Made by a program: the position numbers and the translations under genes
Shown here: positions 1-26,163 of the stretch, in pieces
How positions within the stretch are numbered: the first letter of the stretch is position 1
Layout of the letters: the number at the start of each line of letters is the position of its first letter
DNA from: Acutalibacteraceae bacterium
Lineage (GTDB): Bacteria; Bacillota; Clostridia; Oscillospirales; Acutalibacteraceae
Length of the DNA: 28,488 nucleotides
Assembly: GCA_045604545.1 (NCBI GenBank)
Contig: JAZUOG010000083.1
Span: 1-28,488, forward strand
Reading direction: 5' to 3'
Notes under the pieces: generated by a model
Database searches by the model: none
Seen by the model: only the letters and a program-made list of their open reading frames with translations
Told to the model about the DNA's origin: nothing

Positions 1-272
1 TGAGAGGGCTTATACAGAACAGCCTCATTTAGTGGCGGCGTATACAGTAGAAGTGATCGGTCTGCTTAAATTCCCCACTCAATATGTTGATGGTTATCAC
101 AAGCCCTCTCCGTCATGGCTTACGCCATGCCACCTCTCCCAGAGGGAGAGGCAAGAAATACCTAAATACGCGGCTGGCAGACCGTATTACGCGTTCTACG
201 CGGAGGCTACGGAACAGAGGGCTATGCCCGCAAAAGAAAAAGCACCCGTTTTACGGGTGGATTCTTGTTGTT
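1..272 (+). repeat. Module A copy 1 (window-truncated at its 5' side): ~270-nt noncoding element ending in an intrinsic terminator; near-identical to 17520-17788
   Basis: ~97% identity to 17520-17788. Contains a long-range stem gagggctt(5-12)/aagccctc(107-114), an 8-bp hairpin cctctccc-aga-gggagagg (133-151), and a terminal hairpin cacccg-tttta-cgggtg (243-259) followed by a T-rich tail. The embedded 91-aa ORF has no RBS, and all 5 substitutions between the two copies are nonsynonymous. Confidence 0.6.
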
Positions 273-620: not shown

Positions 621-3047
621 ATGAAAAAAGTGATAGCGTTGTTGCTTGCCGTCGTCATGCTGATGACGGTGCTGCCGATGAGTGTGGCGGCGTTTGATCC
701 CTACAAGGTGCACGCACCGCAAAGCGGCTGTCAGCTGAGAACCTTCAGCTTCGAGAAAGCGGTCAACAGCTGGCTGATGTGGGATCTCGATTTTGATGCC
801 AAATGCGCCGGTCGTGCGCTTGTGAGCCAAAAGGCGCATCCGAATATCCTCGGACAAGCCGCCGTTCCCACCTTCACCTTTGAGGGTGACCGCGTCACCT
901 TCAACGGCACGGACATCACCTCCGATGTGACGGCGGTCACGCTTAAAGCGGAGAACGAAGTCGTTGTGTACGCGGGAAGCACCAAGGCGGAATATCAGGT
1001 GAACATCGATGAAGAAACCAACGGCATTCCCGTTGTGCTCATCGACACGAACGGTGTCGGTATCCCCGACAAGGTGAATTATGTCGACACCGCCATCACC
1101 ATTCTGGGCGCGGAGGTTTACGGCGGCGAGGATCTGTACGCCGTGACGGGCGGTATCAAGCTGCGCGGCAACTCCACCTCCGCGTATGACAAAAAGCCCT
1201 ACCGCATCAAGTTTGATAAAAAGCAGAATGTGTTCGGGCTCGGCAAGGCCAAAAGCTGGGTGCTTCTTGCCAACTACCTCGACCCCGCGGGTATGCGCAA
1301 CGACATTGCCTATGGCTTTGCCTCGCGCATGAGCGAGATGGTCGCGGAAACGAGCGGCTTTGAGGTGTATGTGCCGCGCGTGCGTCCCGTGGAAGTGTAT
1401 CTCAACGGCGAATATCGCGGACTGTACGACATGGGTGACCATGTGCAGGTCGATTCCACCCGTATCGCCATTGACGAAAGCGGCGACGAGTTTGACGACA
1501 ACGATGTGCAGCTCTTCCCCGAAGGCAATGTCGGCTATTACCTCGAGATCGAGCATCCGACCCGCGTCATCCCCGAGTGGTACAGCGAAAACGCCTATTA
1601 TGTGACCATCAAAAATTCGGGCGGCACGGGAACGGATACCATCTATACGGGCGGCATGAACGATGACGGTACACTGGAAACGGCGGGAACGGGCAAGGCG
1701 AATACGCTGTATGTTCAGATCAAAACCCCCGAGATCCCCTCAAACGAGCAGATCACCTACATCAAAAATTATCTGCAGAAGGTCAACGATCTGATCCTTG
1801 CCAAGGATTCCCGCGTGTTTGACTATATCGACATGGACGGCTTTATCGACTGGTATCTCACCAATGAGCTGTTCAAGAATACCGACTCGGCATTTTTGTC
1901 CAGCATCAAGATGTTCAAGGACAAGGACGGCAAGCTGTTCATGGGTCCCGTGTGGGACTTCGATATCGGTTCGGGCGCGGTCGCTTACAACGGCGTTGAC
2001 GACCCCAAAGGCTGGTTGACGCGTGCAGACACCTACTGCGGTTGGTATAAGGCGCTGTTCTCGATGCCGCAGTTTGTCGAAGCGGTGGAAGCCCGCTGGG
2101 CGGAGCTTCACGAAAACGGCATCCTTGAGCAGATCACGGCGGACATCGATGGTCTGAGCCGCTATCTCGACAAGGCGCTTCGCGATAATTTTGCGATGTG
2201 GCATTCGAACTATGTCAACGATGTCTACAACACCGGCTGGCTGACCGTTCCCGATCTGTGTCTGACGGGTGAATATGACGCGCAGTGGCGCTATCTGCGC
2301 AACTATATGCAGGGCCGTATCGCGTGGATGGACGAGCAGTTCGGCTATTCCACCGTGTCGACGACGAAAATCGGCGGCAACGTGTCCATCATCGGTACCC
2401 CCGAAGTGGAGAAGACCTTGCTTGCGGGCACCTACAACGTACAACCGCAGGGGGCATCGCTGTCCTACCAGTGGTACCGTGACGGCGCGGCGATCTCGGG
2501 CGCGAGAAGCAGCAGCTATACCCTCACCGAAAGTGACATCGGTCACGCGGTGTCGGTCAGTGTCACCGCGCGTAGCTACAGCGGCACGCTGACCTCCGAG
2601 TCGCTTGCGGTCACCAAGACCTACAACGACTATGTCACCTCCCAGATTCCGCCGATCGAGTCCTATACTGCCGATACCATCGTCGTGACCGAACGCACGG
2701 GTTACGAGATCACGGTGGACGGTGTCAACTGGCAGATGTCGGGCACCTTCACGGGACTCGAACCCAACACGCTGTATGCCGTGCGCTACCGTCACACCTC
2801 GCTCGGCAACCAGCAGGTCGGACAACCGGGCAAAGCGACCTATGTCATCACCGATCCCGCGGCGTATCCCGTCGGCGACATCAATCTGGACGGGGAGATC
2901 AGCATGAAGGATGCGATGCTGTTGTACAGCCATGTCAGCGGCTCCCGCACGCTCGACGATCCTTCCATCGGCGACTACAACGCCGACACCATCGTCAACA
3001 TGCGCGATGTCATGCTGCTCTATCAGTTTGTATCGGGCGCGGCGTAA
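621..3047 (+). CDS. Secreted CotH-family protein-kinase-like protein with Ig-like middle region and C-terminal type-I dockerin
   Basis: RBS aggagg 606-611 with ATG at 621, followed by the signal peptide MKKVIALLLAVVMLMTVLPMSVAA. CotH-like core: KKPYRIKFDKK...LANYLDPAGMRNDIAYGF...VEVYLNGEYRGLYD. C-terminal duplicated calcium-binding dockerin segments: GDINLDGEISMKDAMLL and GDYNADTIVNMRDVMLL. Confidence 0.8.
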   Translation: MKKVIALLLAVVMLMTVLPMSVAAFDPYKVHAPQSGCQLRTFSFEKAVNSWLMWDLDFDAKCAGRALVSQKAHPNILGQAAVPTFTFEGDRVTFNGTDITSDVTAVTLKAENEVVVYAGSTKAEYQVNIDEETNGIPVVLIDTNGVGIPDKVNYVDTAITILGAEVYGGEDLYAVTGGIKLRGNSTSAYDKKPYRIKFDKKQNVFGLGKAKSWVLLANYLDPAGMRNDIAYGFASRMSEMVAETSGFEVYVPRVRPVEVYLNGEYRGLYDMGDHVQVDSTRIAIDESGDEFDDNDVQLFPEGNVGYYLEIEHPTRVIPEWYSENAYYVTIKNSGGTGTDTIYTGGMNDDGTLETAGTGKANTLYVQIKTPEIPSNEQITYIKNYLQKVNDLILAKDSRVFDYIDMDGFIDWYLTNELFKNTDSAFLSSIKMFKDKDGKLFMGPVWDFDIGSGAVAYNGVDDPKGWLTRADTYCGWYKALFSMPQFVEAVEARWAELHENGILEQITADIDGLSRYLDKALRDNFAMWHSNYVNDVYNTGWLTVPDLCLTGEYDAQWRYLRNYMQGRIAWMDEQFGYSTVSTTKIGGNVSIIGTPEVEKTLLAGTYNVQPQGASLSYQWYRDGAAISGARSSSYTLTESDIGHAVSVSVTARSYSGTLTSESLAVTKTYNDYVTSQIPPIESYTADTIVVTERTGYEITVDGVNWQMSGTFTGLEPNTLYAVRYRHTSLGNQQVGQPGKATYVITDPAAYPVGDINLDGEISMKDAMLLYSHVSGSRTLDDPSIGDYNADTIVNMRDVMLLYQFVSGAA

Positions 3048-3062
3048 TAGTACCAAAAAAAG

Positions 3063-3097
3063 ATCTGTCACAGCTTGCTGTGACAGACCTTTTTTGC
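3063..3097. terminator. Bidirectional rho-independent terminator between the convergent genes
   Basis: A-run, then a 10-bp stem tctgtcacag/ctgtgacaga with loop cttg, then tttttt. Confidence 0.8.
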
Positions 3098-3098
3098 G

Positions 3099-3677
3099 TT
3101 ATGACAATGTGAACGGGTTCTCGGCTTCGGCGCGGTAGTCGAAGAATTTGGCGGGGTAGACCGTCAGGATCGTACGATGATCGGCGGTGACGATGTAGAA
3201 TTCGTCGCCGTTCACGGCGGTGTTGCAAATTCCTTCGGGGGTCATGCAGAATTCCTTCGACCACGTGTAGTGGTGAATGTGGGGAATACGGTACTCCCCG
3301 AAGGATGAAAAGCGCAGGAATTTCATGTTGACATGCCGATAATCCACGCCGATACGGTCAGCCTCTTCGGTGGTGCTGATAAGGCGATCCCGAAGCACGG
3401 TGAAGCGGCGTTCTTTGGCGATGCGCCGCATGGACATGATCCTGTGTGCGATCAGACCGATCATCACGGCCATGGCCGCCGCGATCACCCCGCGGATGAT
3501 CCATTTCCACATCATGTCTTCTGTGAGCTTCCCGAAACCGTTGATGCAGTCATTCAGCAACAGACACAAACCGCCGGACACGAGCGCAAAGGCGATTCCG
3601 ATGGCAAGATCCTTCAGACTGTACCGTTTGAGCAGGTCGTATTGAATATGATTGTTTTGCAGGACGGCTTTTTTCAT
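3099..3677 (-). CDS. Hypothetical two-TM membrane protein (last gene of the flotillin operon)
   Basis: Start chosen at MKKAVLQNN with RBS aggtg. Hydrophobic segments LAIGIAFALVSGGLCLLL and WIIRGVIAAAMAVMIGLIA. No family recognised. Confidence 0.55.
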   Translation of the reverse strand: MKKAVLQNNHIQYDLLKRYSLKDLAIGIAFALVSGGLCLLLNDCINGFGKLTEDMMWKWIIRGVIAAAMAVMIGLIAHRIMSMRRIAKERRFTVLRDRLISTTEEADRIGVDYRHVNMKFLRFSSFGEYRIPHIHHYTWSKEFCMTPEGICNTAVNGDEFYIVTADHRTILTVYPAKFFDYRAEAENPFTLS

Positions 3678-3699
3678 GACAGTCACCTGTTTCTGCGAA

Positions 3700-5115
3700 T
3701 CATTCCGCGGGGGCGCACGGTACCTCGGCGGGAGGCTCCGACACCACGGTATCCGTTGTCGGCTCAGATTTCTTGCCGAGGATCTCGGGCAACTGCATGC
3801 CTGCCAACGCAAACACATCAGCAAGAGGCGGCACGGATTGCATCATACCCGACAGAAATCCTGCCGTGGCATTCTTGCCGTCGCCGTTCTGACCGTTGTC
3901 CCAGACGGTAACCTTGTCGATCTTGATATTCTTGATCGCGTCCACCTGCACACGCATGAGATCTTCGAGCTTATCGGCGATGAGGAGCTTGAGCGCGGCA
4001 TCGGTATCGCCGCCCGCCGACTTGACGATCTCGGCAAAACCGGCGGCTTGTTTTCTGAGGATCTCTTCCATGCCGCGGGCTTCTGCCGCCATCTTGGCAT
4101 AGATCGCGTCTGCCTCGCCCTGTGCCTTGCGGCGGATCTGCTCGGCTTCTGCTTCTGCTTCGATTTCCAACTGACGCTTTTTGGCTTCTGTCTGCACGAT
4201 CACATCGGCTTCGAGGGTTGCCTGTTCACGGGAGCGACGAGCCTCTTCGGCGGCCTGCTCGGCGGCATAGGATTCCTCGAGGGCTTTTGCTGCCTGAATC
4301 TTCTCGGCGGCAGTGGCGATGCGCAGTGCCTCGGCTTCTTTTTCCTTGAGTGCCGCATCGGACATGGCGATCTTCATTTTAGCTTCGTTTTCGCCTTCGA
4401 TGGCAACGGACGAGGCATTTGCCACTTGAATGCGTTGGTCCATGTGGGCGTTGGCCTCACCGATGGAGCCGTCTCTTTCGCGTTCGGCAACGCTCTTTTT
4501 CGCATCGTTGATCGCTTTGGCGGCGGCTTCCTTACCCAACGCGGCGATGTAGCCCGATTCATCGCTGATATCGGTGACGTTCACGTTGATCAGACGCAGA
4601 CCGATCTTTTTCAGCTCGGTCTCCACGTTACTGCTGACCGCCGCGAGAAATTTATCACGATCGGTGTTGATCTCTTCGATGTCCATCGTGGCGATGATCA
4701 GGCGCAGCTGACCGAAGATGATATCCTTGGACAGCTCCTGAATTTCGGAAAGCTGCAGACCGAGGAGGCGCTCCGCCGCATTCTGCATCACGCCGGGTTC
4801 GGTGGAGATACCGACCGTGAAGCGGGACGGTACATCGATGCGGATGTTCTGACGGGACAGGGCATTTTTCAGATCGACCTGGATGGAGATGGGGGTCAGG
4901 TCCAAAAAGGCATACGATTGAAACACAGGGACAACAAATTCTGCACCGCCGTGAATACATTTGGCACTGCGGTTGGTGCCGTCCTTGTTTTTGCCAATCG
5001 AGCCGTAGACGACCATGATCTTGTCGGAGGGACACTTTTTATAGCGTGAGCACGCCCACACAATAAAAGAGACCAGAATCAAGACAAGAGCCAGTACCAA
5101 TGCGATCGTTTCCAT
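3700..5115 (-). CDS. floT: Flotillin-like SPFH/band-7 protein (FloT/YuaG-like)
   Basis: N-terminal TM followed by an SPFH domain, then a long Ala/Glu-rich coiled coil (EAEAEQIRRKAQGEADAIYAKMAAEARGMEE). RBS aaggagg upstream. Lies directly downstream of an NfeD gene. Confidence 0.85.
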   Translation of the reverse strand: METIALVLALVLILVSFIVWACSRYKKCPSDKIMVVYGSIGKNKDGTNRSAKCIHGGAEFVVPVFQSYAFLDLTPISIQVDLKNALSRQNIRIDVPSRFTVGISTEPGVMQNAAERLLGLQLSEIQELSKDIIFGQLRLIIATMDIEEINTDRDKFLAAVSSNVETELKKIGLRLINVNVTDISDESGYIAALGKEAAAKAINDAKKSVAERERDGSIGEANAHMDQRIQVANASSVAIEGENEAKMKIAMSDAALKEKEAEALRIATAAEKIQAAKALEESYAAEQAAEEARRSREQATLEADVIVQTEAKKRQLEIEAEAEAEQIRRKAQGEADAIYAKMAAEARGMEEILRKQAAGFAEIVKSAGGDTDAALKLLIADKLEDLMRVQVDAIKNIKIDKVTVWDNGQNGDGKNATAGFLSGMMQSVPPLADVFALAGMQLPEILGKKSEPTTDTVVSEPPAEVPCAPAE

Positions 5116-5166
5116 AAATCATTCCTCCTTGAATTGGTGAATATATGTCAAAAAAGGACATACGGA

Positions 5167-5769
5167 TCATTTGCGTCTGACCACCAGTGTGGTCTGACCG
5201 CTCAGCCCTGTGACAACGATCTCCGTTCCCGTAGGAATGGCATCGGCGCTGTCGGTTACCGCGTCGCGTTCGACAAAGCTTCCCTGAAGCAGAATGTTCA
5301 CCTTGCCGATACCGTTTCGCTCGGCGGGGATGGTCAGATAGACTGTGCCGGATGTGCCTAAAGCATTCCGATTGTCGATGTTACCGCCGCTTTGCAAACG
5401 CATGATGGCGCGAAGCAGATAGGCAAGAGCGACCATGATGGCCGCGCCGCACAGCACGGCTACAGGGACGGTGATCCACAAACTGACGGCGTGGGAATTC
5501 ATCACCAGTCCCACCCAGCCGAACACGACAAAGAAAGCGATGATGCCGCGAAGGGTGAAAATGTGAAGAGAATCCATTGCATCGATGTCATAATCCTCCG
5601 CGCCGATATCGGAGACGGCATCGCCGATGGAAGGGTCATCCATTTCTCCGTGATCGCCGATTCCCAGAAAGATCATCACCGTCTGTATGATCAGCACGAC
5701 CGTTGCGGGAATTGCCACAAGGGCGAAAAAGTGCGAGGATGTGCTTAAAGAAGTCCACCATTCAGTCAT
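5167..5769 (-). CDS. NfeD-family membrane protein (YuaF-like flotillin partner)
   Basis: Multi-TM N-terminus plus a C-terminal beta-rich soluble domain. The conserved nfeD-flotillin gene pair. RBS aggagg. Confidence 0.7.
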   Translation of the reverse strand: MTEWWTSLSTSSHFFALVAIPATVVLIIQTVMIFLGIGDHGEMDDPSIGDAVSDIGAEDYDIDAMDSLHIFTLRGIIAFFVVFGWVGLVMNSHAVSLWITVPVAVLCGAAIMVALAYLLRAIMRLQSGGNIDNRNALGTSGTVYLTIPAERNGIGKVNILLQGSFVERDAVTDSADAIPTGTEIVVTGLSGQTTLVVRRK

Positions 5770-5792
5770 TGACTATTCCTCCTTCTGCTGAC

Positions 5793-6347
5793 TTACATCA
5801 AATCACAAAACATATCTTCTGCCGTTCGGCGGCACACGGAAGCATAGTGTGCATAGGCCATTATCTGCAAAACCGTTACAAGCCGTTTTTTGGCACCGTC
5901 ACACGGTTCTGTATAGGTTTGCACGGCGGCTTCGGCGGCCGCTTTCACCGTCTCGCGGTCGAGCGCGCCTTCGCCGCTGACAGCGATCATATCGACATAG
6001 CGGTGATACAGCTCGCTGTCGCTGATGAGATCATCGCTGTCGTCATCGAGGACGCCGTTGATAAAGGATAATATGCCGCAGATGCGGTCGAGCTGCAGTG
6101 ATTCGCGCAGCATGTTGATCGTGACGATGCGGGCAAACTGCTCCTTGGAGTATTGCCGCTTGACAGGGGGAGAAACAAAGCCGCGCTTGACCCAGTTCTG
6201 AATGCAATACGGCTCAAGTCCTGTCATGACCGACACCTGCGAAAGGGTGATGCCGCCCGCGGCAAATAAACCGCTAAACAGCAGTCGCGATGCGTTTTCC
6301 GTCAATCGGGATACTTCAATGGTCGTTCCCGGAAACACCGTTGCCAT
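5793..6347 (-). CDS. MerR-like HTH domain protein (possible DUF1836-type regulator), first gene of the operon
   Basis: N-terminal ITLSQVSVMTGLEPYCIQNWVKRGF resembles the MerR recognition helix. RBS gggaggg. The stop lies 24 nt before the nfeD start. Confidence 0.45.
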   Translation of the reverse strand: MATVFPGTTIEVSRLTENASRLLFSGLFAAGGITLSQVSVMTGLEPYCIQNWVKRGFVSPPVKRQYSKEQFARIVTINMLRESLQLDRICGILSFINGVLDDDSDDLISDSELYHRYVDMIAVSGEGALDRETVKAAAEAAVQTYTEPCDGAKKRLVTVLQIMAYAHYASVCRRTAEDMFCDLM

Positions 6348-6381
6348 GCGCCACCCTCCCTTCGTTCTTTACTTTGATTGT

Positions 6382-6438
6382 ATCACATGGTCACGTGATT
6401 GTAAAGTGTAATTTTATGATTTTTAAAAATTTTGTCAG
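6382..6438 (-). promoter_or_regulatory. Promoter (CTGACA-16-TAAAAT) plus palindromic operator TCACGTGA for the MerR-like/NfeD/flotillin operon
   Basis: On the minus strand, -35 is at 6433-6438 and -10 at 6411-6416. The 8-bp perfect palindrome tcacgtga (6391-6398) sits inside atcac...gtgat, between the -10 and the RBS. Confidence 0.45.
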
Positions 6439-6572
6439 CTTGTTATCATCAGTATATCATTTTTCGACAGATCCGCAATTTGCGAAAAAACGGCGGCAAA
6501 AATATCATAACGGAGAAAGGACGGTGTTTTTCACAAAGCGGAAGGGATATTATGTTTTTTTGAAAATCCCCC

Positions 6573-6618: not shown

Positions 6619-6692
6619 TGCGGAATCGTGTAAGGGTAGCACTACGGCCTCTGACTCCGTCTGTCTAGGTTCGAATCCTAGTTCCGCAGCCA
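6619..6692 (+). tRNA. tRNA-Gln (anticodon CTG) with encoded CCA
   Basis: Manual cloverleaf. Acceptor tgcggaa/ttccgca (7 bp). D-arm gtgt-aagggta-gcac. Anticodon stem acggc/tccgt with loop cTCTGac. T-arm ctagg-ttcgaat-cctag. Discriminator G, then CCA. Architecture matches Firmicutes tRNA-Gln. Confidence 0.85.
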
Positions 6693-6879
6693 AAAAACGG
6701 TCATCGCTTTTGCGATGGCCGTTTTTACTGTCTGCTTCTAGGATTCGAAAGGGGCGTTAAGAAAACGTCACGGTGTGACGTTTTTAGCCCCGTTGGAGAT
6801 GAAGAGACTGCCGATTTTACATGTACCAAAAGACGAGATCAAAACTACCTCCTTGATAAAACACCTAGTTCCGCAGCCA
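6693..6879 (+). repeat. Tandem unit U1 (187 bp): terminator, T-arm-like fragment, internal hairpin, then a 16-nt copy of the tRNA-Gln 3' end
   Basis: Ends in cctagttccgcagcca (6864-6879), identical to tRNA positions 6677-6692. The internal A-run/hairpin/T-run lies at 6762-6785. Confidence 0.7.
6698..6726. terminator. Bidirectional intrinsic terminator T1 after tRNA-Gln
   Basis: A-run, then stem cggtcatcgc/gcgatggccg with loop tttt, then ttttt. Confidence 0.8.
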
Positions 6880-7180
6880 AAAAACGGTCATCGCTTTTGC
6901 GATGGCCGTTTTTTCTGTCTGCTTCTAGGATTCGAAAGAACCGAGCAGCGAGCGCGTCCGGGGGACGAAACAGCGAGCGCGGAGGGCTGTGCAGCAACGC
7001 GATTTTGCAAGCCGCAACCCTTTGCGGCGCAGAAAAATCGAATGTTGCAAACGTTAGTTAAGAAAACGTGCCAGGGGCACGTTTTCAGCCCCGTTGGAGT
7101 TGAAGAGACTGCTGTTTTTGCTTGCACCAAAAGACGAGATCAAAACTACCTCCTTGATAAAACACCTAGTTCCGCAGCAA
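6880..7180 (+). repeat. Tandem unit U2 (301 bp): same architecture as U1 plus a 103-bp GC-rich insertion; ends in the tRNA 3' copy cctagttccgcagcAa
   Basis: Begins with a T1-like terminator at 6885-6914. The internal hairpin at 7063-7085 differs from U1 by two compensatory base-pair changes. The 3' tRNA fragment is at 7165-7180. Confidence 0.7.
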
Positions 7181-7216
7181 AAAAACGGTCATCGTTGTTG
7201 CGATGACCGTTTTCTT
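7179..7216. terminator. Bidirectional terminator T3 (third copy), also terminating htpX on the minus strand
   Basis: aaaaaaa, then stem cggtcatcg/cgatgaccg with loop ttgtt, then tttt. The htpX stop lies 13 nt away. Confidence 0.75.
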
Positions 7217-7228
7217 GCTGTATTCGGA

Positions 7229-8179
7229 TTATTGCATGGGGTTGTCGAAGGCGGGAGCGGGCTCGCTCCGGGTGGCCTCGACGGCGGCAACGGCACTCAT
7301 TTCCTGCAGACGGCGCACACGCTCGCCGTTGTCGGGGTGGCTGGATTCCAGCGCGGCGAACAGGCCGTCCTTGCCGTGACCGGTGCCGAAGCTGGCGAGC
7401 ACCTCGCTCAGCGAGGGACCGTAGCCGCATTGATGCGCATAGGCGTCCGCTTCGTATTCGTTCCGGCGGCTGGTGGCCATGACGAGCCACACGCCGAGCT
7501 GTGTCCATGCACGCATCATCAGCACCAGCAGGAAGTCAGCGACCACGCGGGAGATGCTGATGAAAATGGACGCAACGACACCGCCCCAGCCTCTGCTGAA
7601 TGCCGCGGTGCAGAACTCGCCGATCCACATCATGACATTCGCGACCACGCGAACAATGACGAAGATGGTTGTCACGATCAGGTTGCCCACCGCAACGACC
7701 AGCACGTTGTCGGTGTCCTTGTGAGCAAGGTGACCGAATTCGTGTGCCATGACGCCTTTGATCTGCTCGTCGGAATAGTTGAGCAGGCCGCGGGTCACGC
7801 AAAGCGTTTTGCGACCGGTTGCGAAGGCGTTGGGCTCTTCATCGTCGGACAGGAACATCTGAATCTTGTCGTTGAGCTCGGGGTTGAGCGTTTTGGCGTT
7901 GGCATACACCTCGTCAAACAGCGGTTGCAAACGGTTGAGCACCTCTTGATCGGTGATCTTTTTGCAGTGGCTCTGCAGACGCAGGATCCATTCGCCGATG
8001 GGCGACAGGGCGATGGCGAAGGACGCCGCATAGATCAGAAAGCCCCAAAGAGCACCCATCCAGTCGGTGTAGAAACCGCTGAACAGCGCGGTGATCAGCA
8101 GGATGTTGAGCACCATCCAGATGATCAGACCGGTGTTGCTCTTCTTGAACAGGTTTTTGAAGAAGTCGACAACGTACAT
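7229..8179 (-). CDS. htpX: Zinc metalloprotease HtpX (peptidase M48)
   Basis: HEFGH zinc motif, NAFATG motif and two N-terminal TM segments. Start at MYVVDFFKN with RBS agaggag (the ORF-track start 8224 lacks an RBS). Confidence 0.85.
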   Translation of the reverse strand: MYVVDFFKNLFKKSNTGLIIWMVLNILLITALFSGFYTDWMGALWGFLIYAASFAIALSPIGEWILRLQSHCKKITDQEVLNRLQPLFDEVYANAKTLNPELNDKIQMFLSDDEEPNAFATGRKTLCVTRGLLNYSDEQIKGVMAHEFGHLAHKDTDNVLVVAVGNLIVTTIFVIVRVVANVMMWIGEFCTAAFSRGWGGVVASIFISISRVVADFLLVLMMRAWTQLGVWLVMATSRRNEYEADAYAHQCGYGPSLSEVLASFGTGHGKDGLFAALESSHPDNGERVRRLQEMSAVAAVEATRSEPAPAFDNPMQ

Positions 8180-8295: not shown

Positions 8296-11200
8296 TCACA
8301 GGCTTGCGATGCCGCAGTCGAAGGCGGCTTCGAGCACCTCGCGCAAGGTGTCGAGTGCGGAGAGTCCTTTGCGGATCTTCACGGTGTAATACGGTTTGGA
8401 GCCTGCACTGATCATCATTCTGCCTTGCAGGGCGGCGGACAGCGCCATCGCTTTGGGCATATCCAGCGCGAGCGGATACAAAAGCACCGCGTCGTTTTGC
8501 TGTTTAACTTCGACGATGCCTGCGGCGACCGCCATGTTTCTGAGCAATGCGACTTCGACGAGTCCCTGCACGGCGGCGGGCGGCTCTCCGAAGCGGTCGA
8601 TCAGCTCGTCGTACACATCGAGGCTGTCTTCCTGTGTGCGGATATCCGCAATACGGCGATAGGCTTCCAGACGCTGGGCGTGGTCGGGAATGTAGCGATC
8701 GGGAATGTGGGCGCTGACCTGCAGGTCGATGAGGCAATCCTGTTCGGAGGCGGCGGGGATCTCGCCCTTTTCCGCTTTGACCGCTTCTGTCAGCAGGCGC
8801 AGATACATATCGTAGCCGACCGCCTCCATGTGACCGTGCTGTTGCGCACCGAGCAGGTTACCCGCGCCGCGGATCTCCATGTCGCGAAGCGCGATTTTGA
8901 AGCCCGCGCCGAATTCGGTGAATTCCCGCATCGCGTCGAGGCGTTTGGAGGCGACCTCGTCAAGCACCTTGCCCGCCTTGAAGGTGAGATAGGCAAATGC
9001 ACGGCGGGAGCTTCGTCCCACGCGTCCGCGCAACTGGTGAAGCTGAGACAGACCGTAGCGATCGGCGTTTTCAATGATCAGGGTGTTGACGTTGGGAATG
9101 TCAACACCCGTTTCGATGATGGTGGTGCACACGAGAATATCCACCTCGCGGTCGAGCACCTGCCGCCAGATATCCGACAGCTGATCCTCGCTCATGCGAC
9201 CGTGGGCAACCGCGATGCGGGCATCGGGCAGACGCATCTGCCAGCCTGCCGCGACACGCTCGATGTCGTCGATGCGGTTATGCAGATAATACACCTGACC
9301 GCCGCGGCGAAGCTCGCGCGAGATCGCGTCTTTGAGCAGGCGGGTGTCATGCTCGAGCACGAAGGTCTGCACGGGGTGGCGATCCTGCGGGGCTTCTTCG
9401 ATGATGGACATATCGCGGATACCGCTCATCGCCATGTTGAGGGTGCGGGGAATGGGGGTGGCGGACAGGGTGAGTACGTCCACCGTCGGGAAGCGTTCCT
9501 TGATCTTTTCCTTTTGGGCGACGCCGAAGCGTTGTTCCTCATCGATGATGAACAGGCCGAGGTCGCGCAGCTGTACGTCCTGCGACAGCAGACGGTGGGT
9601 GCCGATGAGCAGGTCGATCTCGCCGTTTTTGGCGCGGCGAAGAATGTCGGTTTGCTGTTTTGCCGTGCGGAAGCGGGAAATCATTTCCACCGTGACGGGG
9701 AAGCCCGAAAACCGCTCGAGAGCGGACTGATAATGCTGATATGCCAGAATGGTGGTGGGAACGAGCAGTAAGCACTGCTTGCCTTCGGCGACACAACGGA
9801 AGGCGGCGCGGAAAGCGACCTCCGTCTTGCCGAAGCCGACATCGCCGCACAGCAGACGCTCCATCGGGACGGCGCGTTGCATATCGAGGCGGATCTCCTC
9901 CGCACAGCGAAGCTGATCGTCGGTCTCTTCATAGGGAAAATGCCGTTCGAAATCGTACTGCCACTCGCCGTCCTCCGAGAAGGCATAGCCCTTTGTCGCC
10001 ATACGTTTGGAATAGAGGGCGATGAGTTCCTTGGCGATGTCCTTGACAGCGCCGCGCACGCGGGTCTTGGCTTTTTGCCATTCCTGCCCGCCGAGGCGGT
10101 GGAGCTTGACGGTCACCTCGTCCTTGGTGCCGATGTATTTGGACACCAGATCGAGCTGTGTCACGGGGACATACAGCATATCGCCTTTGGCAAATTCCAG
10201 CTTGATGTAATCCTTGATGACGCCTTGCATGGACAGTTGTTGGATACCGAGATAAATACCGATACCGTGAGCGGCGTGGACGACATAGTCGCCTTTTTTG
10301 AGCTCTTCGAGACTGCCGATGGGGGTGCCGCGGTCTTTTTTCGCCATGAGACGGCGTTTTTTGGTGCGGGCGGCACGACCGTGGGTGAGAACGGCGATGT
10401 CGCCTTTGGGGAAATCAAAGCCCGAAGACAGACCGCCCGTCGTCACGATGATGCGGTTTTTGAGAGGCTTGTCGGGGTTCGGCGCATACATCGCAGGGAG
10501 TCCCGCCGCCGCGAGGTCTTCGGCGAGCACCTTCGCTGTTTTTTCCTCGGGACCGGCTAGTACGACCGCCGCCGCCTTGCGCTCCATCAGGTCTTTAAGG
10601 TCTTCCTCCAGCAGTTCGGTCGCGCCCGAAAACGGCGGAAGCTGGCGCGCTTCCACGTGCACCTGTGTGCGAAGCGGCAGGTTTTTGACGGTGCGGGTGA
10701 AGTTTTCGGTGATGATAAGCTGACGGGAGGCAAGAAGCGACGTCAGCTCGTCTTCCTCGAGCATAAAACGGTCGAGCGTTTTGCACAGCTTCGCTTCCTC
10801 GAGAAGAGCGGTCAGCTCCTCCGACAGTCGCCACGAAGCGGCGTGGAACTGGTCGACAAGACGGCTCCACTCGCACGCGAAAATGACGCTGTTCGGAAGA
10901 TAGTCAAACAGAGTGGAGGGCTTATCAAAAAGAAGCGGGAGATATTTATCGAGCGGGACGTGACCGCCGCCTTTGAGCACGGCGGCGTCGGCCGAAAGCC
11001 ATTCCTTGGCGGGTGCTTGCTTGCCGCGAAGGGTGGCAGAGAGGGCGGTCAGTTTATCGGCGAGGGCGGTTGTGTCCTCGCACAGCAGTTCCACGGCAGG
11101 CGGAATGCTCACCGAGGTGACCGTTTCGGTACGGCGCTGGGTGTCGATGTCGAAACGGGTCAGCGTGTCGACGGTATCGCCCCACAGCTCCAGACGAATG

Positions 11201-12700: not shown

Positions 12701-15331
12701 ATGTCTACTAAGTATGTTTACCTGTTCTCCGAAGGCAACGCGACCATGCGTGAGCTGCTCGGCGGTAAAGGCGCGAACCTCGCCGAGATGACCGCAATCG
12801 GTCTTCCCGTGCCGCAGGGCTTCACCGTCACCACCGAAGCCTGCACCCGTTACTATGACGACGGCCGCAAGATCGACGATGCGATCAAGGCGGAGATCCT
12901 CGAGAACATCAAAAAGATGGAAGAGATCACCGGCAAAAAGTTCGGCGACAAAGAAAACCCGTTGCTCGTTTCCGTCCGTTCGGGCGCTCGTGCTTCGATG
13001 CCCGGCATGATGGACACCATTCTGAACCTCGGTCTGAACGAGGAAGTTGTTGAGACGATGGCTGCTCAGTCCGGCAATGCTCGTTGGGCGTATGACTGCT
13101 ATCGCCGTTTCATTCAGATGTACTCCGACGTCGTTATGGAAGTCGGCAAGAAGTACTTCGAAGAGCTCATCGACGAGATGAAGGAAAAGAAAGGCGTCAC
13201 GCAGGACGTCGAGCTGACTGCTGAGGACCTCAAGGAACTCGCCGGCCAGTTCAAGGCGGAATACAAGAACAAGATCGGCAAGGACTTCCCCACCGATCCC
13301 ATCGAGCAGCTCATGGGCGCTGTCGAAGCGGTCTTCCGTTCCTGGGACAACCCCCGTGCTAACGTCTATCGCCGCGACAACGACATTCCCTACTCCTGGG
13401 GTACCGCTGTCAACGTGCAGATGATGGCGTTCGGTAACATGGGCGACGACTGCGGCACCGGCGTTGCGTTCACCCGCGACCCCGCTACCGGCGATAAGGG
13501 CCTCATGGGCGAGTTCCTCACCAACGCACAGGGCGAAGACGTCGTTGCCGGCGTTCGTACTCCGATGCCCATCGCTGAGATGGCTGACAAGTTCCCCGAA
13601 GCGTTCGCGGAATTCAACAAGGTTTGCGCGATCCTCGAGGATCACTATCGTGATATGCAGGACATGGAGTTCACCGTTGAGCACGGCAAACTCTTCATGC
13701 TCCAGACCCGTAACGGCAAGCGTACCGCTAAGGCGGCTCTGAAGATCGCTTGCGACCTCGTTGAGGAAGGCATGATCGATAAGAAGCAGGCTGTTGCGAT
13801 GATCGATCCCCGTAACCTCGACACCCTGCTCCACCCGCAGTTTGACGCGAAGGCTCTGAAAGCGGCTACCCCCGCCGGCAAGGGTCTGGGTGCTTCCCCC
13901 GGTGCTGCTTGCGGTAAAGTCGTGTTCACCGCTGAGGACGCCGAGGCTTGGAACAACCGCGGCGAGAAAGTCATTCTTGTCCGTCTTGAGACCTCTCCCG
14001 AGGACATCACCGGCATGAAGGCTTCCCAGGGTATCCTCACCGTCCGTGGCGGCATGACCTCTCACGCGGCTGTTGTTGCCCGTGGTATGGGTACCTGCTG
14101 TGTCTCCGGCTGCGGCGACATCATCATGGACGAAGACAACAAGAAGTTCACCCTCGCGGGCAAGACCTACAATGAGGGCGACTATATCTCCATCGACGGC
14201 TCCACCGGCGCCATCTATGACGGCATTATCCCGACCGTTGTCGCACAGGTCGTCGGCGAGTTCGAGACCATCATGAACTGGGCTGACGAGTTCCGTACGC
14301 TGAAGGTCCGCACCAATGCCGACACCCCCGCCGACGCGAAGAAGGCTGTTGAGCTGGGCGCGGAAGGCATCGGCCTGTGCCGTACCGAGCACATGTTCTT
14401 CGAGGCTGATCGTATCGCCGCGTTCCGCGAGATGATCTGCTCCGACACCGTCGAAGAGCGCGAAGCCGCTCTGGCGAAGATCCTGCCCTATCAGCAGGGC
14501 GACTTTGAGGCGCTGTACACCGCCCTCGAAGGCAACCCCGTTACCATTCGTTTCCTCGATCCGCCTCTCCACGAGTTTGTTCCCACCGAGGATGCCGACA
14601 TCGCGGCTCTCGCGGCGGCTCAGGGCAAGACCGTCGAGGACATCAAGAACATCATCACCTCTCTGCATGAGTTCAACCCGATGATGGGTCACCGTGGCTG
14701 CCGTCTGGCTGTCACCTATCCCGAAATCGCCAAGATGCAGACCGCGGCGGTTATCCGTGCGGCCATCAACGTCAAGAAGGCTCATCCCGAATGGAACATC
14801 GTTCCCGAGATCATGATCCCGCTGACCGGCGAAGTGAAGGAAATGAAGTACGTCAAAGACATTGTTGTGGCTACCGCTGATGCGGAGATCGCTGCTGCGG
14901 GCGCTGACCTCAAGTACGAAGTCGGTACCATGATGGAAATCCCGCGTGCGTGCCTCACCGCCGACGAGATTGCCAAGGAAGCGGAGTTCTTCTGCTTCGG
15001 CACCAACGACCTGACTCAGATGACCTTCGGCTTCTCCCGTGATGACGCCGGCAAGTTCCTCAACGCTTACTACGACACCAAGATCTACGAGAACGATCCG
15101 TTCGCGAAGCTGGATCAGAACGGCGTCGGCAAGCTGATGGAAATGGCCGTCACCCTCGGCAAGAAGGTTCGTCCCGAGATGCACTGCGGCATCTGCGGCG
15201 AGCACGGCGGCGACCCTGTCTCCGTTGAGTTCTGCCACAAGATCGGCCTTGACTATGTGTCCTGCTCGCCCTTCCGCGTGCCGGTCGCTCGTCTCGCCGC
15301 CGCTCAGGCAGCAATCAAAGAAAGCAAGTAA
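12701..15331 (+). CDS. ppdK: Pyruvate, phosphate dikinase
   Basis: 876 aa from MSTKYVYLF. PEP-utilising-enzyme phosphohistidine motif GGMTSHAAVVARGMG, an ATP-grasp N-terminal domain and a TIM-barrel C-terminal domain. Confidence 0.95.
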   Translation: MSTKYVYLFSEGNATMRELLGGKGANLAEMTAIGLPVPQGFTVTTEACTRYYDDGRKIDDAIKAEILENIKKMEEITGKKFGDKENPLLVSVRSGARASMPGMMDTILNLGLNEEVVETMAAQSGNARWAYDCYRRFIQMYSDVVMEVGKKYFEELIDEMKEKKGVTQDVELTAEDLKELAGQFKAEYKNKIGKDFPTDPIEQLMGAVEAVFRSWDNPRANVYRRDNDIPYSWGTAVNVQMMAFGNMGDDCGTGVAFTRDPATGDKGLMGEFLTNAQGEDVVAGVRTPMPIAEMADKFPEAFAEFNKVCAILEDHYRDMQDMEFTVEHGKLFMLQTRNGKRTAKAALKIACDLVEEGMIDKKQAVAMIDPRNLDTLLHPQFDAKALKAATPAGKGLGASPGAACGKVVFTAEDAEAWNNRGEKVILVRLETSPEDITGMKASQGILTVRGGMTSHAAVVARGMGTCCVSGCGDIIMDEDNKKFTLAGKTYNEGDYISIDGSTGAIYDGIIPTVVAQVVGEFETIMNWADEFRTLKVRTNADTPADAKKAVELGAEGIGLCRTEHMFFEADRIAAFREMICSDTVEEREAALAKILPYQQGDFEALYTALEGNPVTIRFLDPPLHEFVPTEDADIAALAAAQGKTVEDIKNIITSLHEFNPMMGHRGCRLAVTYPEIAKMQTAAVIRAAINVKKAHPEWNIVPEIMIPLTGEVKEMKYVKDIVVATADAEIAAAGADLKYEVGTMMEIPRACLTADEIAKEAEFFCFGTNDLTQMTFGFSRDDAGKFLNAYYDTKIYENDPFAKLDQNGVGKLMEMAVTLGKKVRPEMHCGICGEHGGDPVSVEFCHKIGLDYVSCSPFRVPVARLAAAQAAIKESK

Positions 15332-16592: not shown

Positions 16593-17006
16593 ATGGAACT
16601 GTCAAATGAAAAGGCACTTGCCGTGGAATGGCGTAAACTGAGAACCCTGCTCACCACCAACAACAAGCTGGAATACGAGTTGTTTAAAAAGGTGTTCGAG
16701 GAGACCAGAGACCTGTTGTCGTCCTGCGCGACGGCAACCGCCATCGACAAAAGCTACATGAACGTGATCGTGGAAGCCTACAAGTTCAGCGGCACTGACG
16801 GTGCTTACAAGGACGCAAAGCCGCAGGCGGCGCTCATCATGACCGAGCGTATGCTGCAGCATTATGTCCTTGACAGCCATGTCGGCGACGTGCGCAGCGG
16901 TGTGTATGTGTATGTGCTGGAAGCGAAGGAAGAGATCTACATTGACTTTGAAAATGTGGACACTTCCATCGCCGTTCTCGGCCGCGCTCTGGAGAGACGG
17001 TATTAA
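16593..17006 (+). CDS. Hypothetical protein (137 aa)
   Basis: RBS aggag 16581-16585, with the ATG at 16593 preferred by spacing. 22 nt after the upstream gene, so likely co-transcribed. Confidence 0.6.
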   Translation: MELSNEKALAVEWRKLRTLLTTNNKLEYELFKKVFEETRDLLSSCATATAIDKSYMNVIVEAYKFSGTDGAYKDAKPQAALIMTERMLQHYVLDSHVGDVRSGVYVYVLEAKEEIYIDFENVDTSIAVLGRALERRY

Positions 17007-17224
17007 GGGCAGGGATAAGGGCAGGGATATCCGCGACATCTGTCGCGGGTGATATTCGCACTACGTGCGAGTGATATTTGCCCCGCGGGCAAGTGAAATG
17101 TTGCTGTCGCAACGTGAAGGAGTCCGCTTCGCGGACGGATCGCCCTCTCAGTCTCGCTGACGCTCGACAGCTCTCCCATGGGGAGAGCCAAGGCGACCGC
17201 CTGTCGCGAGACCACCACCCAACT
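17007..17224 (+). repeat. Hairpin array: direct repeat gggcagggata x2, then four ~22-nt units (GTGAWAT + variable GC hairpin), then a nested multi-stem domain
   Basis: GTGA at 17049, 17071, 17093 and 17114. The hairpins are cgcac-tac-gtgcg, gcccc-g-cgggc, gttgc-tgtc-gcaac and gtccgc-ttc-gcggac. An outer stem gtctcgc...gcgagac encloses gctctccc-atg-gggagagc (17170-17188). Confidence 0.6.
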
Positions 17225-17300
17225 CTGTCATTGCGAGGGCGCGTAAGCGCCCGTGGCAATCTTCGCAGAAAGATTCTTCGCTTACGCTCAGAATGACAAG
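17225..17300 (+). repeat. Module B copy 2 (the GNRA loop gtaa replaces acaa)
   Basis: Aligns to 412-487. The differences are confined to the loop and a short segment of the 3' arm. Confidence 0.55.
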
Positions 17301-17519
17301 GGGGAGGCGATCAGCCTCTCACAAATTCTGCACCAATATGGGGGCAACCGTTGCCTCCCTTGCCTAAAGGGAGGTGGCACGAGCGTATGCGAGTGACGGA
17401 GGGATTCTTTTTGTGTACCGAAAACCACGCGTTAAACGCGTGGTTCAGTGAAGGCTATGCCGATGAGTAAAAAACACGGCTCTCCCTTTGGGAGAGCTGT
17501 CAAAACCGTAGGTTTTGAC

Positions 17520-17788
17520 TGAGAGGGCTTATACAGAACAGCCTCATTTAGTGGCGGCGTATACAGTAGAAGTGATCGGTCTGCTTAAATTCCCCACTCA
17601 ATGTGTTGATGGTTATCACAAGCCCTCTCCGTCATGGCCTACGCCATGCCACCTCTCCCAGAGGGAGAGGCAAGAAATAACTAAATACGCGGCTGGCAGA
17701 CTGTATTACGCGTTCTACGCGGAGGCTACGGAACAGAGGGCTATGCCCGCAAAAGAAAAACCACCCGTTTTACGGGTGGTTTCTTTTT
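17520..17788 (+). repeat. Module A copy 2, ending in a bidirectional intrinsic terminator
   Basis: ~97% identical to 1-272. Terminator ccacccg-ttttac-cgggtgg followed by tttcttttt (17761-17788). Preceded by the 9-bp hairpin gtcaaaacc-gta-ggttttgac. No convincing sigma-A promoter lies immediately upstream. Confidence 0.6.
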
Positions 17789-17802
17789 GCGTATAGGGGA
17801 GA

Positions 17803-18207
17803 TTAATAGCCGTGGTCGGCGTGACGCCAGGTTTCGCCGGGGTTTCTGACAAGGATCCATTTCCAACCCGTATAGGTGAAATTCGGGTTGAGCGAGCCGT
17901 CGCCGCCCGATTCACCGACAGCAAAGGTGGAGACAAGCACCATGACCTCCTGTGCCTGATGACGCTCGGCAAATTCCGTGTAACCGGAAAGTGCATCATC
18001 GCCGATATAGGCGAGATCAATGAGTGTGCAACCGTCGAATTCCTTGCTGAAATAGTCCATGGTCACCCGAACAGCAGAGGAGATATCCTCTTTGCTGTAT
18101 ACGGCAGAGGGACGCTCAATGACTGTGACATCGCTGACATCTCCGCCGCAGGCGGACAGGCACAGCAGGACGGCTGTTATTAATACATATGCAAGAAAAC
18201 GCTTCAT
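17803..18207 (-). CDS. Small lipoprotein
   Basis: MKRFLAYVLITAVLLCLSACGG with lipobox LSAC. RBS aggagag. Confidence 0.65.
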   Translation of the reverse strand: MKRFLAYVLITAVLLCLSACGGDVSDVTVIERPSAVYSKEDISSAVRVTMDYFSKEFDGCTLIDLAYIGDDALSGYTEFAERHQAQEVMVLVSTFAVGESGGDGSLNPNFTYTGWKWILVRNPGETWRHADHGY

Positions 18208-21575: not shown

Positions 21576-22211
21576 TTATGCTGTGATTGGTGTGGCTTCG
21601 GCACCGAAAAGGGAGAGGGATTCCTCAATAGCTTCGGCGGATTCGGCACGGAACTCGTCGTACAGAAGGAAGTGACAGTTTGCCGTGACGCTGTTGTCAT
21701 CGCCGCGGGTAAACACCACCATGACGGGTGTGGCATTGTCGAAGGTGTAGATGTAGACGGTGTTGTCTGTCATGTCATCGCTGACGAAGGTTTTGCGTGT
21801 CGCACACACGGAGGAGATCGCCATGGCGTTCAGACCGGCTTTGGCGTTGATCCATGACGGAACGGATTCATACGCCCGCGCGATCATATAGGCTTCGTAT
21901 TGCTCGGGAACATCGTTCGGAAGCGTAATGCTCAGTTGTGTGAACAGCATCTCTTTTTGCAATGTCACCTCGTACACCGCTTTAGGGGTGGTGTGATCCT
22001 CGCCGGCGAGTGCGGCGAGCGGCTCTTTATACTCCTCTGTTGCGGAGGAGAAGAATGCTTCGGGATAAAGCGCCGTCTGCTTCATGTAGGGGATGAGATT
22101 CAGACCGCGCTGGTAAAGCGACACGGAGGGCGCAGCACTTTCGCAGGCGGAGAACAGCATGACGCTTGCAAAAACAGCAATGGCTGTGAGTATGGCAATG
22201 AGACGTTTCAT
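21576..22211 (-). CDS. Lipoprotein (212 aa)
   Basis: MKRLIAILTAIAVFASVMLFSAC. RBS aaggag. The start region and upstream junction are duplicated at 22541-22605. Confidence 0.65.
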   Translation of the reverse strand: MKRLIAILTAIAVFASVMLFSACESAAPSVSLYQRGLNLIPYMKQTALYPEAFFSSATEEYKEPLAALAGEDHTTPKAVYEVTLQKEMLFTQLSITLPNDVPEQYEAYMIARAYESVPSWINAKAGLNAMAISSVCATRKTFVSDDMTDNTVYIYTFDNATPVMVVFTRGDDNSVTANCHFLLYDEFRAESAEAIEESLSLFGAEATPITA

Positions 22212-22237
22212 AATCAAGAACTCCTTTTGTGGTGGGT

Positions 22238-22573
22238 TCAGCCGCCGCGGCCGGGGCCGAAGGCGGCGCTGACGGCAACACCGTCTTGGTCGAAATGGAC
22301 GCTCAGTCCGTAAGGATAACCCGAGAAATCGAATTCTTCGTACGACCAGAGGCGACAGCTTGATGCCATGTAGCTGTCCTCGTGGTCAAAATAGGCACAG
22401 TTGGGCTTGCCGAGCCTTCCGAAAATATCGTTTTTGGTGAGTGTGTCGCCATCGTTAATATCCTCGGCGATATCCTCCATTGCGCGGTAGTCGGCGGATT
22501 GCAACAGCGATTCGACACTGCAACCGCTGAGTAACAGCAAGGCGGCCGTGAGTATGGCGATGAGACGTTTCAT
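22238..22573 (-). CDS. Small lipoprotein, tandem paralog 1
   Basis: MKRLIAILTAALLLLSGCS. C-terminal FDFSGYPYGLSVHFDQDG...GPGRGG is shared with 22600-22944. Confidence 0.65.
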   Translation of the reverse strand: MKRLIAILTAALLLLSGCSVESLLQSADYRAMEDIAEDINDGDTLTKNDIFGRLGKPNCAYFDHEDSYMASSCRLWSYEEFDFSGYPYGLSVHFDQDGVAVSAAFGPGRGG

Positions 22574-22599
22574 AATCCAAAACTCCTTTTGTGGTGGGT

Positions 22600-22944
22600 T
22601 CAGCCGCCGGGGGCGGGTTCAAATTCGGCGGCAACGGTCAGCCCGTGTTCATTGAAATGAACAAGCAGGCGGTAGGGAGAGCCCGAAAAATCAAACACTT
22701 CATAGCGCCAGTTCCATGAGGTTGCTTCCATATGGTCACCGCTGCCGTCGGCATAATCGGGTGCACCGATTTTCTGTGTGACCTCAAATTTGGTCAATGA
22801 TGCACCGTTTTCAATCGTTTGAGCAAAAGCCTTCAGTTCGCGGTAACGCGAAGATTGAAGCAGGGAATCACCGTCACAGCCGCCGAGGAACACCGAAAGA
22901 ACGAGTGCTGTCATGCACAAAACGGAAAGGATACGGATCGTCAT
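22600..22944 (-). CDS. Small lipoprotein, tandem paralog 2
   Basis: Start MTIRILSVLCMTALVLSVFLGGC with RBS aggagag. C-terminal FDFSGSPYRLLVHFNEHG...PAPGG. Confidence 0.6.
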   Translation of the reverse strand: MTIRILSVLCMTALVLSVFLGGCDGDSLLQSSRYRELKAFAQTIENGASLTKFEVTQKIGAPDYADGSGDHMEATSWNWRYEVFDFSGSPYRLLVHFNEHGLTVAAEFEPAPGG

Positions 22945-22948
22945 ACTG

Positions 22949-26044: not shown

Positions 26045-26103
26045 CAACTGTACTATGTGAACTAGTACAGTTAGACTATAACACGGTGAATGATGTTTGT
26101 CAA
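26045..26103 (-). promoter_or_regulatory. Autoregulatory region: promoter TTGACA-17-TATAGT (minus strand) followed by a perfect 10-bp inverted repeat AACTGTACTA-n7-TAGTACAGTT
   Basis: -35 at 26098-26103 and -10 at 26075-26080. The palindrome at 26045-26071 lies between the -10 and the RBS of the GntR gene. Confidence 0.6.
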
Positions 26104-26141: not shown

Positions 26142-26163
26142 GGATAAAACAGAGGTGATGGGC

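Follow-up and report, generated by a model that had tools for sequence, protein, structure and literature searches.

The 28,488-nt contig JAZUOG010000083.1 of an Acutalibacteraceae bacterium (assembly GCA_045604545.1), analyzed here at its full length and referred to as the window, opens with a sequence of about 270 nt that recurs near position 17,520. A first-pass annotation had named this sequence module A, described its two copies as 97% identical and terminator-ended, and favored an RNA or DNA element over a conserved peptide. What kind of element is this, where does it begin and end, and how did it come to occupy more than one site? The comparisons below place module A within a non-coding unit of about 376 nt that is almost entirely palindromic, and we consider this unit likely to be a non-autonomous, dispersed palindromic repeat, specific to its lineage, of the kind represented by MITEs (miniature transposable elements with inverted repeats) and by doublets of repetitive extragenic palindromic (REP) sequences that form hairpins (REPINs).

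A repeat finder aligned positions 1-270 of the window with 17520-17789 without gaps at 97% identity, as had been claimed, and our own count over 1-272 and 17520-17791 (copies 1 and 2) gave 9 differences in 272 columns (96.7% identity), five of which, at 84, 120, 161, 183, and 242, precede the terminator loop; a 270-nt match at 97% identity far exceeds what chance would supply. The window is the entire NCBI contig and its 5′ end falls inside copy 1, so position 1 is an assembly break within the repeat and no biological boundary, and module A is therefore a truncated view of a longer unit. When 185,579 species-representative genomes were scanned with a 20-mer from module A, one true match was recovered, in a Clostridia metagenome-assembled genome (MAG) from goat caecum (L002), where a third copy at 3989-4344 matches 17416-17771 of the window with 8 differences in 356 nt (97.8% identity). 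Copy 2 and the L002 copy have 104 more 5′ bases in common (17416-17519), which bears out the earlier suggestion that the element extends further upstream, and outside the repeat the L002 contig has no similarity to the window, even by tblastx, its flanking genes being unrelated. The similarity to L002 ends in the terminator loop, the L002 copy being without the 3′ arm of the terminator. With the left boundary (TACCG) taken from the comparison of copy 2 with L002 and the right boundary from the point at which copies 1 and 2 diverge, the complete unit, as delimited by these alignments, is 17416-17791, or about 376 nt. The annotation's module A is only the right ~70% of it, and the long palindrome of inverted two-hairpin ends had been missed. 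Patterns specific to module A had no match in viral contigs or in JGI/ENA metagenome contigs, and a plasmid search returned no match. Six proteins encoded by the window were also looked up as exact entries in a contig index, without a match. A 21-nt exact match at 6266-6286 of a Salinivirgaceae MAG (L001, a 38%-GC Bacteroidota contig) was without further similarity and was set aside as a chance match of the 20-mer scan.

The central 195 nt of the unit (17478-17672) consist of two inverted ends of about 50 nt, here called W, around a 93-nt core. The W consensus comprises a hairpin CTCTCCC/GGGAGAG, TGKC, a second hairpin, and a tail GAC-K-GAGAGGGC. The parts, in window coordinates, are as follows.

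1-272, + strand: copy 1, whose left side is lost at the contig start; of the left W end only the final 9 nt remain, followed by the core, the right W end, spacer hairpins, and the terminator.
17416-17791, + strand: copy 2, the complete ~376-nt unit, with bounds from L002 (left) and copy 1 (right).
17422-17445, + strand: T1, a subterminal hairpin, AAACCACGCGTTAAACGCGTGGTT, which on the - strand reads as a weak terminator.
17478-17528, + strand: left W end, type I, with hairpin GGCTCTCCC/GGGAGAGC, TGTC, hairpin AAAACC/GGTTTT, and tail GAC-T-GAGAGGGC.
17529-17621, + strand: core, 93 nt between the W tails, of lineage-specific sequence; the tails GAGAGGGCTT and AAGCCCTCTC pair across it.
17622-17672, - strand: right W end, type II, inverted, with GCCTCTCCC/GGGAGAGG, TGGC, ATGGC/GCCAT, and GAC-G-GAGAGGGC; the copy 1 equivalent is 103-153 (-).
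17673-17757, + strand: outer right arm, with an A-rich spacer, a hairpin CGCGT-TCT-ACGCG, and a mini-hairpin, GGGCTATGCCC.
17758-17791, both strands: T2, an intrinsic terminator that reads in both directions, AAACCACCCG-TTTTA-CGGGTGGTTT, flanked by an A-tract on the left and a T-tract on the right; the copy 1 equivalent is 243-272.

Taken as a whole, the unit is an imperfect palindrome of ~335 nt followed by the mini-hairpin and the bidirectional rho-independent terminator. Its predicted RNA fold is one long imperfect hairpin at -171.7 kcal/mol, as compared with -113 ± 6 for shuffled sequences (z = -9.6); the DNA fold has z = -8.3, and the left W end by itself folds at -26.7 kcal/mol (z = -4.5). 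When the left arm was aligned to the right arm in reverse complement, the score was 74.5 versus 27 ± 5 for shuffles; the outer arms (17416-17477 and 17673-17757) pair imperfectly, and T1 and T2 (17758-17782) are alike at 21 of 24 aligned positions (87.5%). Each copy in the window ends in a terminator-like hairpin, as annotated: that of copy 2 is strong and bidirectional, with an 11-bp stem (-17.1 kcal/mol on the + strand, -19.0 on the -) and T-tracts on both strands, and that of copy 1 is weaker, with a 7-bp stem, -11 kcal/mol, and a broken T-tract. The two arms within a unit have diverged far more than the three copies have from one another (2-3%), so the palindrome would be old and the unit recently copied as one block, which now stands at 97-98% identity at no fewer than three loci.

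The unit was absent from the orthologous sites in five related assemblies or contigs (L004, L005, L006, L059, and L061), so that filled and empty sites coexist among relatives. Upstream of the CotH gene, L004 presents just 86 nt, with no unit, and L059 and L060 (~91% identity) have a T-like terminator, an array with matches to the candidate RNA Gut-1, and W-like and B-like modules (B being a second repeat of the window, described below), with no A. Copy 2 lies at a strain-specific break in synteny, where T2 now serves as the predicted terminator of a lipoprotein gene (17803-18207, -) and occupies the place at which related genomes have a different terminator hairpin. In the sister strain L005 (95.8% nucleotide identity), the lipoprotein gene is followed by that other hairpin (CACCATCGA...TCGATGGTG) and then by HPr-trmD-rimM, and the similarity to the window ends at 17777, within the T-tract of T2; the more distant L006 and L007 (~75-82% nucleotide identity) have the lipoprotein-HPr-trmD-rimM order and the terminator hairpin as in L005 and lose similarity to the window at that position too. 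In three JGI contigs (L061-L063, ~93-96% nucleotide identity at the locus), the similarity stops at the same point and is followed by the first arm of the ancestral terminator and then by a third, unrelated sequence. The site past the lipoprotein stop codon (17777-17791) is a rearrangement hot spot with three different downstream contexts: HPr-trmD-rimM (L005, L006), an unrelated 141-aa gene (L061), and the repeat with ppdK-pth-mfd (window). L061-L063 all end within ~520 nt of this site.

The W ends have a wider distribution than the unit that contains them. The W pattern was present in 50 IMG/VR contigs and in 18 GenBank fecal "Bacteriophage sp." contigs; only the W parts of module A match these viral and phage contigs, and the 93-nt core had no match anywhere else. 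Folding of W is supported by the parts that the search left free: 33 different sequences were found for the second hairpin, and these average 5.2 stacked pairs versus 1.6 in shuffles; in 54 of 59 cases the unconstrained 5′ arm of the first hairpin was present. Crude open reading frame (ORF) calls in the viral contigs gave too noisy a picture of the orientation of W for use. A tail-to-tail W doublet with a gap of 78-108 nt was found in at least 120 metagenome stretches. Such W-core-W elements form an abundant family, carried by human-gut metagenome contigs (L064-L183; e.g., L099:3772-3971) and by L058:401-539, and their core has a conserved sequence of its own (..CAGCGATAAGCAG..TTTGTCAGAGCGATGCTATCGCTG..). 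Among the matches listed, nearly all doublets span 120-121 nt versus 119 nt in module A, and the resolved elements measure 179-191 nt, mostly 185-191, in at least 72 unique flanking contexts, often directly after stop codons. They are typically flanked by AAA to the left and TTT to the right, in many cases within a longer palindrome (GCCTGCCAAA^TTTGGCAGGC). W doublets with the tails outward also occur, between a stop codon and the next ribosome-binding site (RBS).

The gut elements share with module A the order of parts (type II W, tail, core, tail, inverted type I W), near-identical W ends, a core of similar length (94-95 nt versus 93 nt), and an intergenic position. Their core sequence, by contrast, is unrelated to that of the window: an nhmmer comparison of the two cores gave 8.2 bits, mostly from the tails, which is not significant. 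The gut elements also usually end at the W hairpins, whereas the window unit adds a palindromic arm of ~60-85 nt per side and a built-in terminator, and they come from Oscillospiraceae-like human-gut contigs rather than from a ruminant-gut Clostridia lineage. In a joint alignment of the family, compensatory changes support 13 of the 47 consensus pairs, all of them in local hairpins, and the second hairpin on the left shows no complementarity to that on the right; it is therefore the local hairpins that are conserved, not a long duplex. One of the contigs (L064) carries a PreQ1-III riboswitch, which suggests that the gut contigs belong to Faecalibacterium. MITEs common to phages and their hosts, Faecalibacterium included, have been documented (PMC11602168), and the unnamed gut elements probably fall among them.

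Other small modules lie beside the unit. Module B occupies 412-489 and 17225-17302 (90% identical) and is itself palindromic, beginning with TGTC-ATTGCGAGG and ending with AATGACA; in L059 its copies stand at 2060-2146, 13115-13205, and ~9778-9870, in both orientations and independently of A. The region 17021-17135 of the window is a run of five hairpins with different stems and GTGAWAT linkers and contains a match to Gut-1 (RF01706) at 17047-17125 (+) that scores 53.3 bits versus a threshold of 50; three further matches are found in L059, at 9381-9462 (+), 2435-2518 (-), and 13311-13379 (-). Gut-1 has been described only from human-gut metagenomes, and in these contigs it behaves as a dispersed repeat module. 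It lies outside the unit and does not travel with it, being absent near copy 1 and near the L002 copy. The permuted order of A and B in the window had been read as either a larger B-A-B unit or independent mobility of the two modules. L002 has A without B, and L059 has B-like and Gut-1 modules at several sites without A; a B-A-B super-unit is therefore rejected, and independent modules in mosaic arrays are supported.

Four other explanations of the 376-nt unit were weighed. An ORF of 91-93 aa spans both copies and stays open in the L002 copy up to the terminator loop, as a small protein-coding gene would require, but neither start (GTG at 32, TTG at 17515) is preceded by a Shine-Dalgarno-like sequence, the 93-aa product had no homologue at E ≤ 0.01 among 5.8 billion proteins and no Pfam match, and the frame runs through the hairpin repeats. 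All five substitutions between copies 1 and 2 before the terminator change residues in this frame (Y/C, L/P, P/T, P/L, A/P), a result that our recount left as first reported, with the other two frames giving 2 synonymous and 3 non-synonymous, and 1 and 4, respectively; where the L002 copy overlaps copy 1 it has three more substitutions, and these are amino-acid-changing too (T/K, Q/E, and a second hit in the P/T codon). The earlier view that module A is non-coding thus stands, the unit is non-coding, and the protein-coding alternative is effectively refuted. A structured small RNA gene in several copies, with a + strand transcript of ~270-375 nt that stops at the intrinsic terminator and works in trans, for example through protein binding or as an RNase III substrate, would account for the strong terminator, the very stable fold, the covariation of W hairpins in relatives, the resemblance of W to the candidate RNA Whalefall-1, the true Gut-1 match 290 nt upstream of the unit, and the common orientation of the unit and its upstream gene in the two contexts that show this gene. 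Yet a sigma-70-like promoter was found on neither strand of 16900-17900, in both contexts with a visible left end (copy 2 and L002) the unit is directly preceded by a terminator-like hairpin and T-run, the L002 copy lacks the 3′ arm of the terminator, and T2 works in both directions, with two further terminator-like sites within the unit on the - strand. Near-complete palindromy and presence or absence between close strains typify DNA repeats, and covariation of hairpins is equally expected if they are recognized as single-stranded DNA. Rfam returned no family at threshold for module A, W, or the gut doublets, nor at the gathering score for ten of the L064-L183 loci or for W in the window and the 22 W-bearing loci scanned; sub-threshold matches (ctRNA_p42d, STnc490, RNAI, guanidine-II, and others) were dismissed as generic matches to terminators and hairpins. 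An RNA gene of this type seems to us quite improbable, and of the two options first offered, an RNA or a DNA element, the DNA repeat is the more likely, the absence of a promoter and the terminators upstream lending nothing to a free-standing RNA gene.

The remaining two alternatives concern the copying rather than the nature of the sequence. If the repeat had been collapsed or duplicated in assembly, or had served as the joint of a chimeric contig, this could explain why the contig begins inside the unit, why the gene order of three related assemblies is lost precisely where copy 2 ends, and why contigs of related assemblies also stop near these loci. The two copies nonetheless show 9 differences and unlike flanks, the unit is carried by an independent MAG (L002), and the overlap at the junction between the unit and the ancestral flank amounts to only ~15 nt (17777-17791, mostly T-tract), which is too short to mislead a k-mer assembler; an assembly artefact is accordingly very unlikely. 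A weightier alternative dispenses with transposition and holds that homologous recombination or gene conversion acts among mosaic arrays of hairpin modules, the unit being the largest block recently exchanged. The modules of these arrays (Gut-1, W, B, T) vary in order and orientation between loci and related genomes, no target-site duplications accompany the unit, the right end of copy 2 coincides with the ancestral terminator position and the synteny break, and the terminator of copy 1 resembles the one that follows an upstream dockerin gene in L059. Against this, the L002 unit has a terminator on one side and a promoter on the other and lacks any further shared module that could supply homology, and related W-core-W elements occur with sharp ends in at least 72 unrelated contexts, which would be hard to achieve by conversion alone. 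We regard recombination between arrays as unlikely.

The reading of the unit as a non-autonomous palindromic repeat agrees with known systems to differing degrees, MITEs and the REPIN group, taken up first, being the nearest. As in MITEs, the unit is short (376 nt, under ~500 bp) and non-coding, has terminal or subterminal inverted repeats (the W ends, the whole-unit palindrome, and the similarity of T1 and T2), and is dispersed, with filled and empty sites, over three loci in two assemblies; the duplicated target of MITEs was not seen, and the AAA/TTT flanks of the gut family are palindromic and not direct. With REPINs and bacterial interspersed mosaic elements (BIMEs) (PMC3116915, PMC3337134), it shares two inverted short palindromic repeats around a spacer that together fold as a long hairpin; W occurs singly, in head-to-head or tail-to-tail pairs, and in mosaic clusters, all extragenic, the arrays of the window lineage resemble BIMEs in being built of independent modules, and a gene like those of the REP-associated tyrosine transposases (RAYTs) is present on the contig. 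The W end is, however, a double hairpin of ~50 nt rather than a REP of ~20-25 nt, the unit is 3-4 times the length of a REPIN, and the RAYT-like gene has no flanking repeats and falls below the family cut-off.

Another likeness is to the CGTC-tagged REPs of Di Nocera et al. (2013, PMC3733652), in which an unpaired CGTC/TGTC tag precedes a stem of 8-9 bp that begins with AT and encloses a loop of 4-5 nt, with CCA as the tail, and which are mostly head-to-head dimers with no dedicated transposase and have not been reported from Firmicutes. On the opposite strand, the second hairpin of W presents CGTC (or AGTC), a stem starting with AT, a loop of 3-5 nt, the returning stem, and a (G)CCA tail, for example CGTC-ATGGC-CTAC-GCCAT-GCCA at 17630-17651, and the window unit is likewise a head-to-head dimer without a dedicated transposase. 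Type II W carries the CGTC tag, the AT start, and the GCCA tail, but W stems are short for a CGTC REP (5-8 bp in W versus 8-9 bp), many W copies, type I among them, have AGTC...GACA in place of the tag and tail, and in W this hairpin comes in every case with a partner hairpin and a tail. Whalefall-1 (RF01762; Weinberg et al. 2010, PMC2864571) resembles W in its CUCUCC/GGAGAG hairpin, second hairpin, and purine-rich tail, but W scores only 16.8 bits at 103-154 (-) and 16.9 bits at 17622-17673 (-) versus a gathering threshold of 37, and membership was rejected; Gut-1, from the same study, has a true match in the same intergenic array as the unit but lies outside the repeat. Candidates such as attC sites, the single-strand origins (sso) of rolling-circle plasmids, retron non-coding RNAs, and the omega-RNAs of TnpB/IscB were dropped for want of an associated gene, an Rfam match, or recognized conserved motifs, and in view of the chromosomal multi-copy context.

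Palindrome-associated transposable elements (PATEs) derive from IS200/IS605 elements; their two ends carry subterminal hairpins that resemble each other, the target 5′ of the left end is conserved, and an element encoding TnpA is related to them. The window unit resembles them in its similar T1 and T2 subterminal hairpins and in having neither a target duplication nor coding capacity, and CTTTTT stands 3-4 nt before the unit in both visible left flanks (two cases only); it differs in that no TnpA/TnpB element with the ends of the window unit was found.

Several observations weigh against a MITE/REPIN-like repeat mobilized in trans. The exact unit is known in three copies only; no target-site duplication or direct repeat was found at the ends of copy 2 or of the L002 copy, no autonomous insertion sequence with matching ends was found, no transposase adjoins any copy, and copying by recombination between arrays, as set out above, would make transposition unnecessary. 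The first-pass annotation had proposed folding the copies and looking for compensatory substitutions, and there is none in the long hairpin among the eleven sites that vary across the three copies, a number too small to inform. The RAYT-like gene of the window (26158-26628, +) encodes a homologue of HUH/Y1 transposases with an HUH motif, MPDHIHLL, and FYDH (YDH), yet it scores 54 bits versus the cut-off of 80 for NCBIfam NF047646 (REP_Tyr_transpos) and 21 bits versus the Pfam Y1_Tnp cut-off of 23. No W or T hairpins surround it, and it is missing from L061 and L062 (~95% identical), which keep other hairpin modules. An association with REPINs is confined to RAYT groups 2 and 3, and group 1 occurs in Clostridia (PMC5581495).

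Further features of this gene were noted. Its loss in L061 and L062 is clean (26169-26592 of the window is missing), and it is kept in the more distant L006 at only 47% amino-acid identity. It lies directly upstream of and overlaps the start of uvrC (26625-28466), apparently in one operon, with a GntR-type palindrome (AACTGTACTA...TAGTACAGTT) at 26048-26072 in the shared promoter region. A search of 1.5 Mb of loci for RAYT-like genes close to W elements turned up the orthologue in L006 and no other.

If the unit is a palindromic repeat of this kind, it would be copied in trans by an enzyme that recognizes hairpin DNA. The RAYT-like gene is the sole candidate for the copier, and nothing ties it to the repeat. 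Judging from its anatomy, the unit would terminate or insulate transcription in both directions, copy 2 thereby serving as the terminator of the lipoprotein gene, and its copies, as homologous sequences, would be points of breakage for gene order and for short-read assemblies. A bolder and decidedly speculative proposal, to which we give little credence at present, is that W represents a so far undescribed superfamily of REP-like sequences, akin to the CGTC REPs, in gut Clostridia and their phages; its W-core-W doublets, the 376-nt derivative included, would be copied via single-stranded DNA by a domesticated RAYT-like transposase such as that at 26158-26628.

Other repeats and rearrangements of the contig lie apart from the unit. 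In the region 6619-7240, the last ~16 nt of a tRNA-Gln (CTG) recur three times downstream of the gene, together with a terminator (6677-6751, 6864-6938, and 7165-7239), and a 157-nt direct repeat is also present (6756-6912 and 7057-7213, 89% identical); these look like nested remnants of insertions at the 3′ end of the tRNA or a small tandem duplication. The ~3.5 kb between CotH and tRNA-Gln (3041-6521) hold an SPFH/Band-7 gene, a 200-aa ORF, and a MerR/DUF1836 gene; L059 and L060 have only 132 nt in their place, and at least the first 1.5 kb are present in the sister contig L003. A 188-nt direct repeat (22182-22369 and 22544-22731, 74% identity) falls in adjacent small - strand ORFs (22238-22573 and 22600-23052), which are probably tandem paralogues, with no Pfam match.

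The practical value of the finding is modest: the unit explains contig breaks here and in sister assemblies and marks a difference in gene order between close strains, and the 91-93-aa ORFs, along with similar "hypothetical proteins" called from these hairpins, can be treated by annotators as spurious. Beyond this lineage, the two-hairpin W end is widespread and structurally conserved in Oscillospiraceae-like and phage-like contigs from the gut, and it could mark links between phages and their hosts. Were the superfamily proposal to prove true, it would describe the first REPIN-RAYT-type system in Firmicutes, and if an enzyme that mobilizes W is found, the biology of REPs and REPINs would be extended to that phylum.

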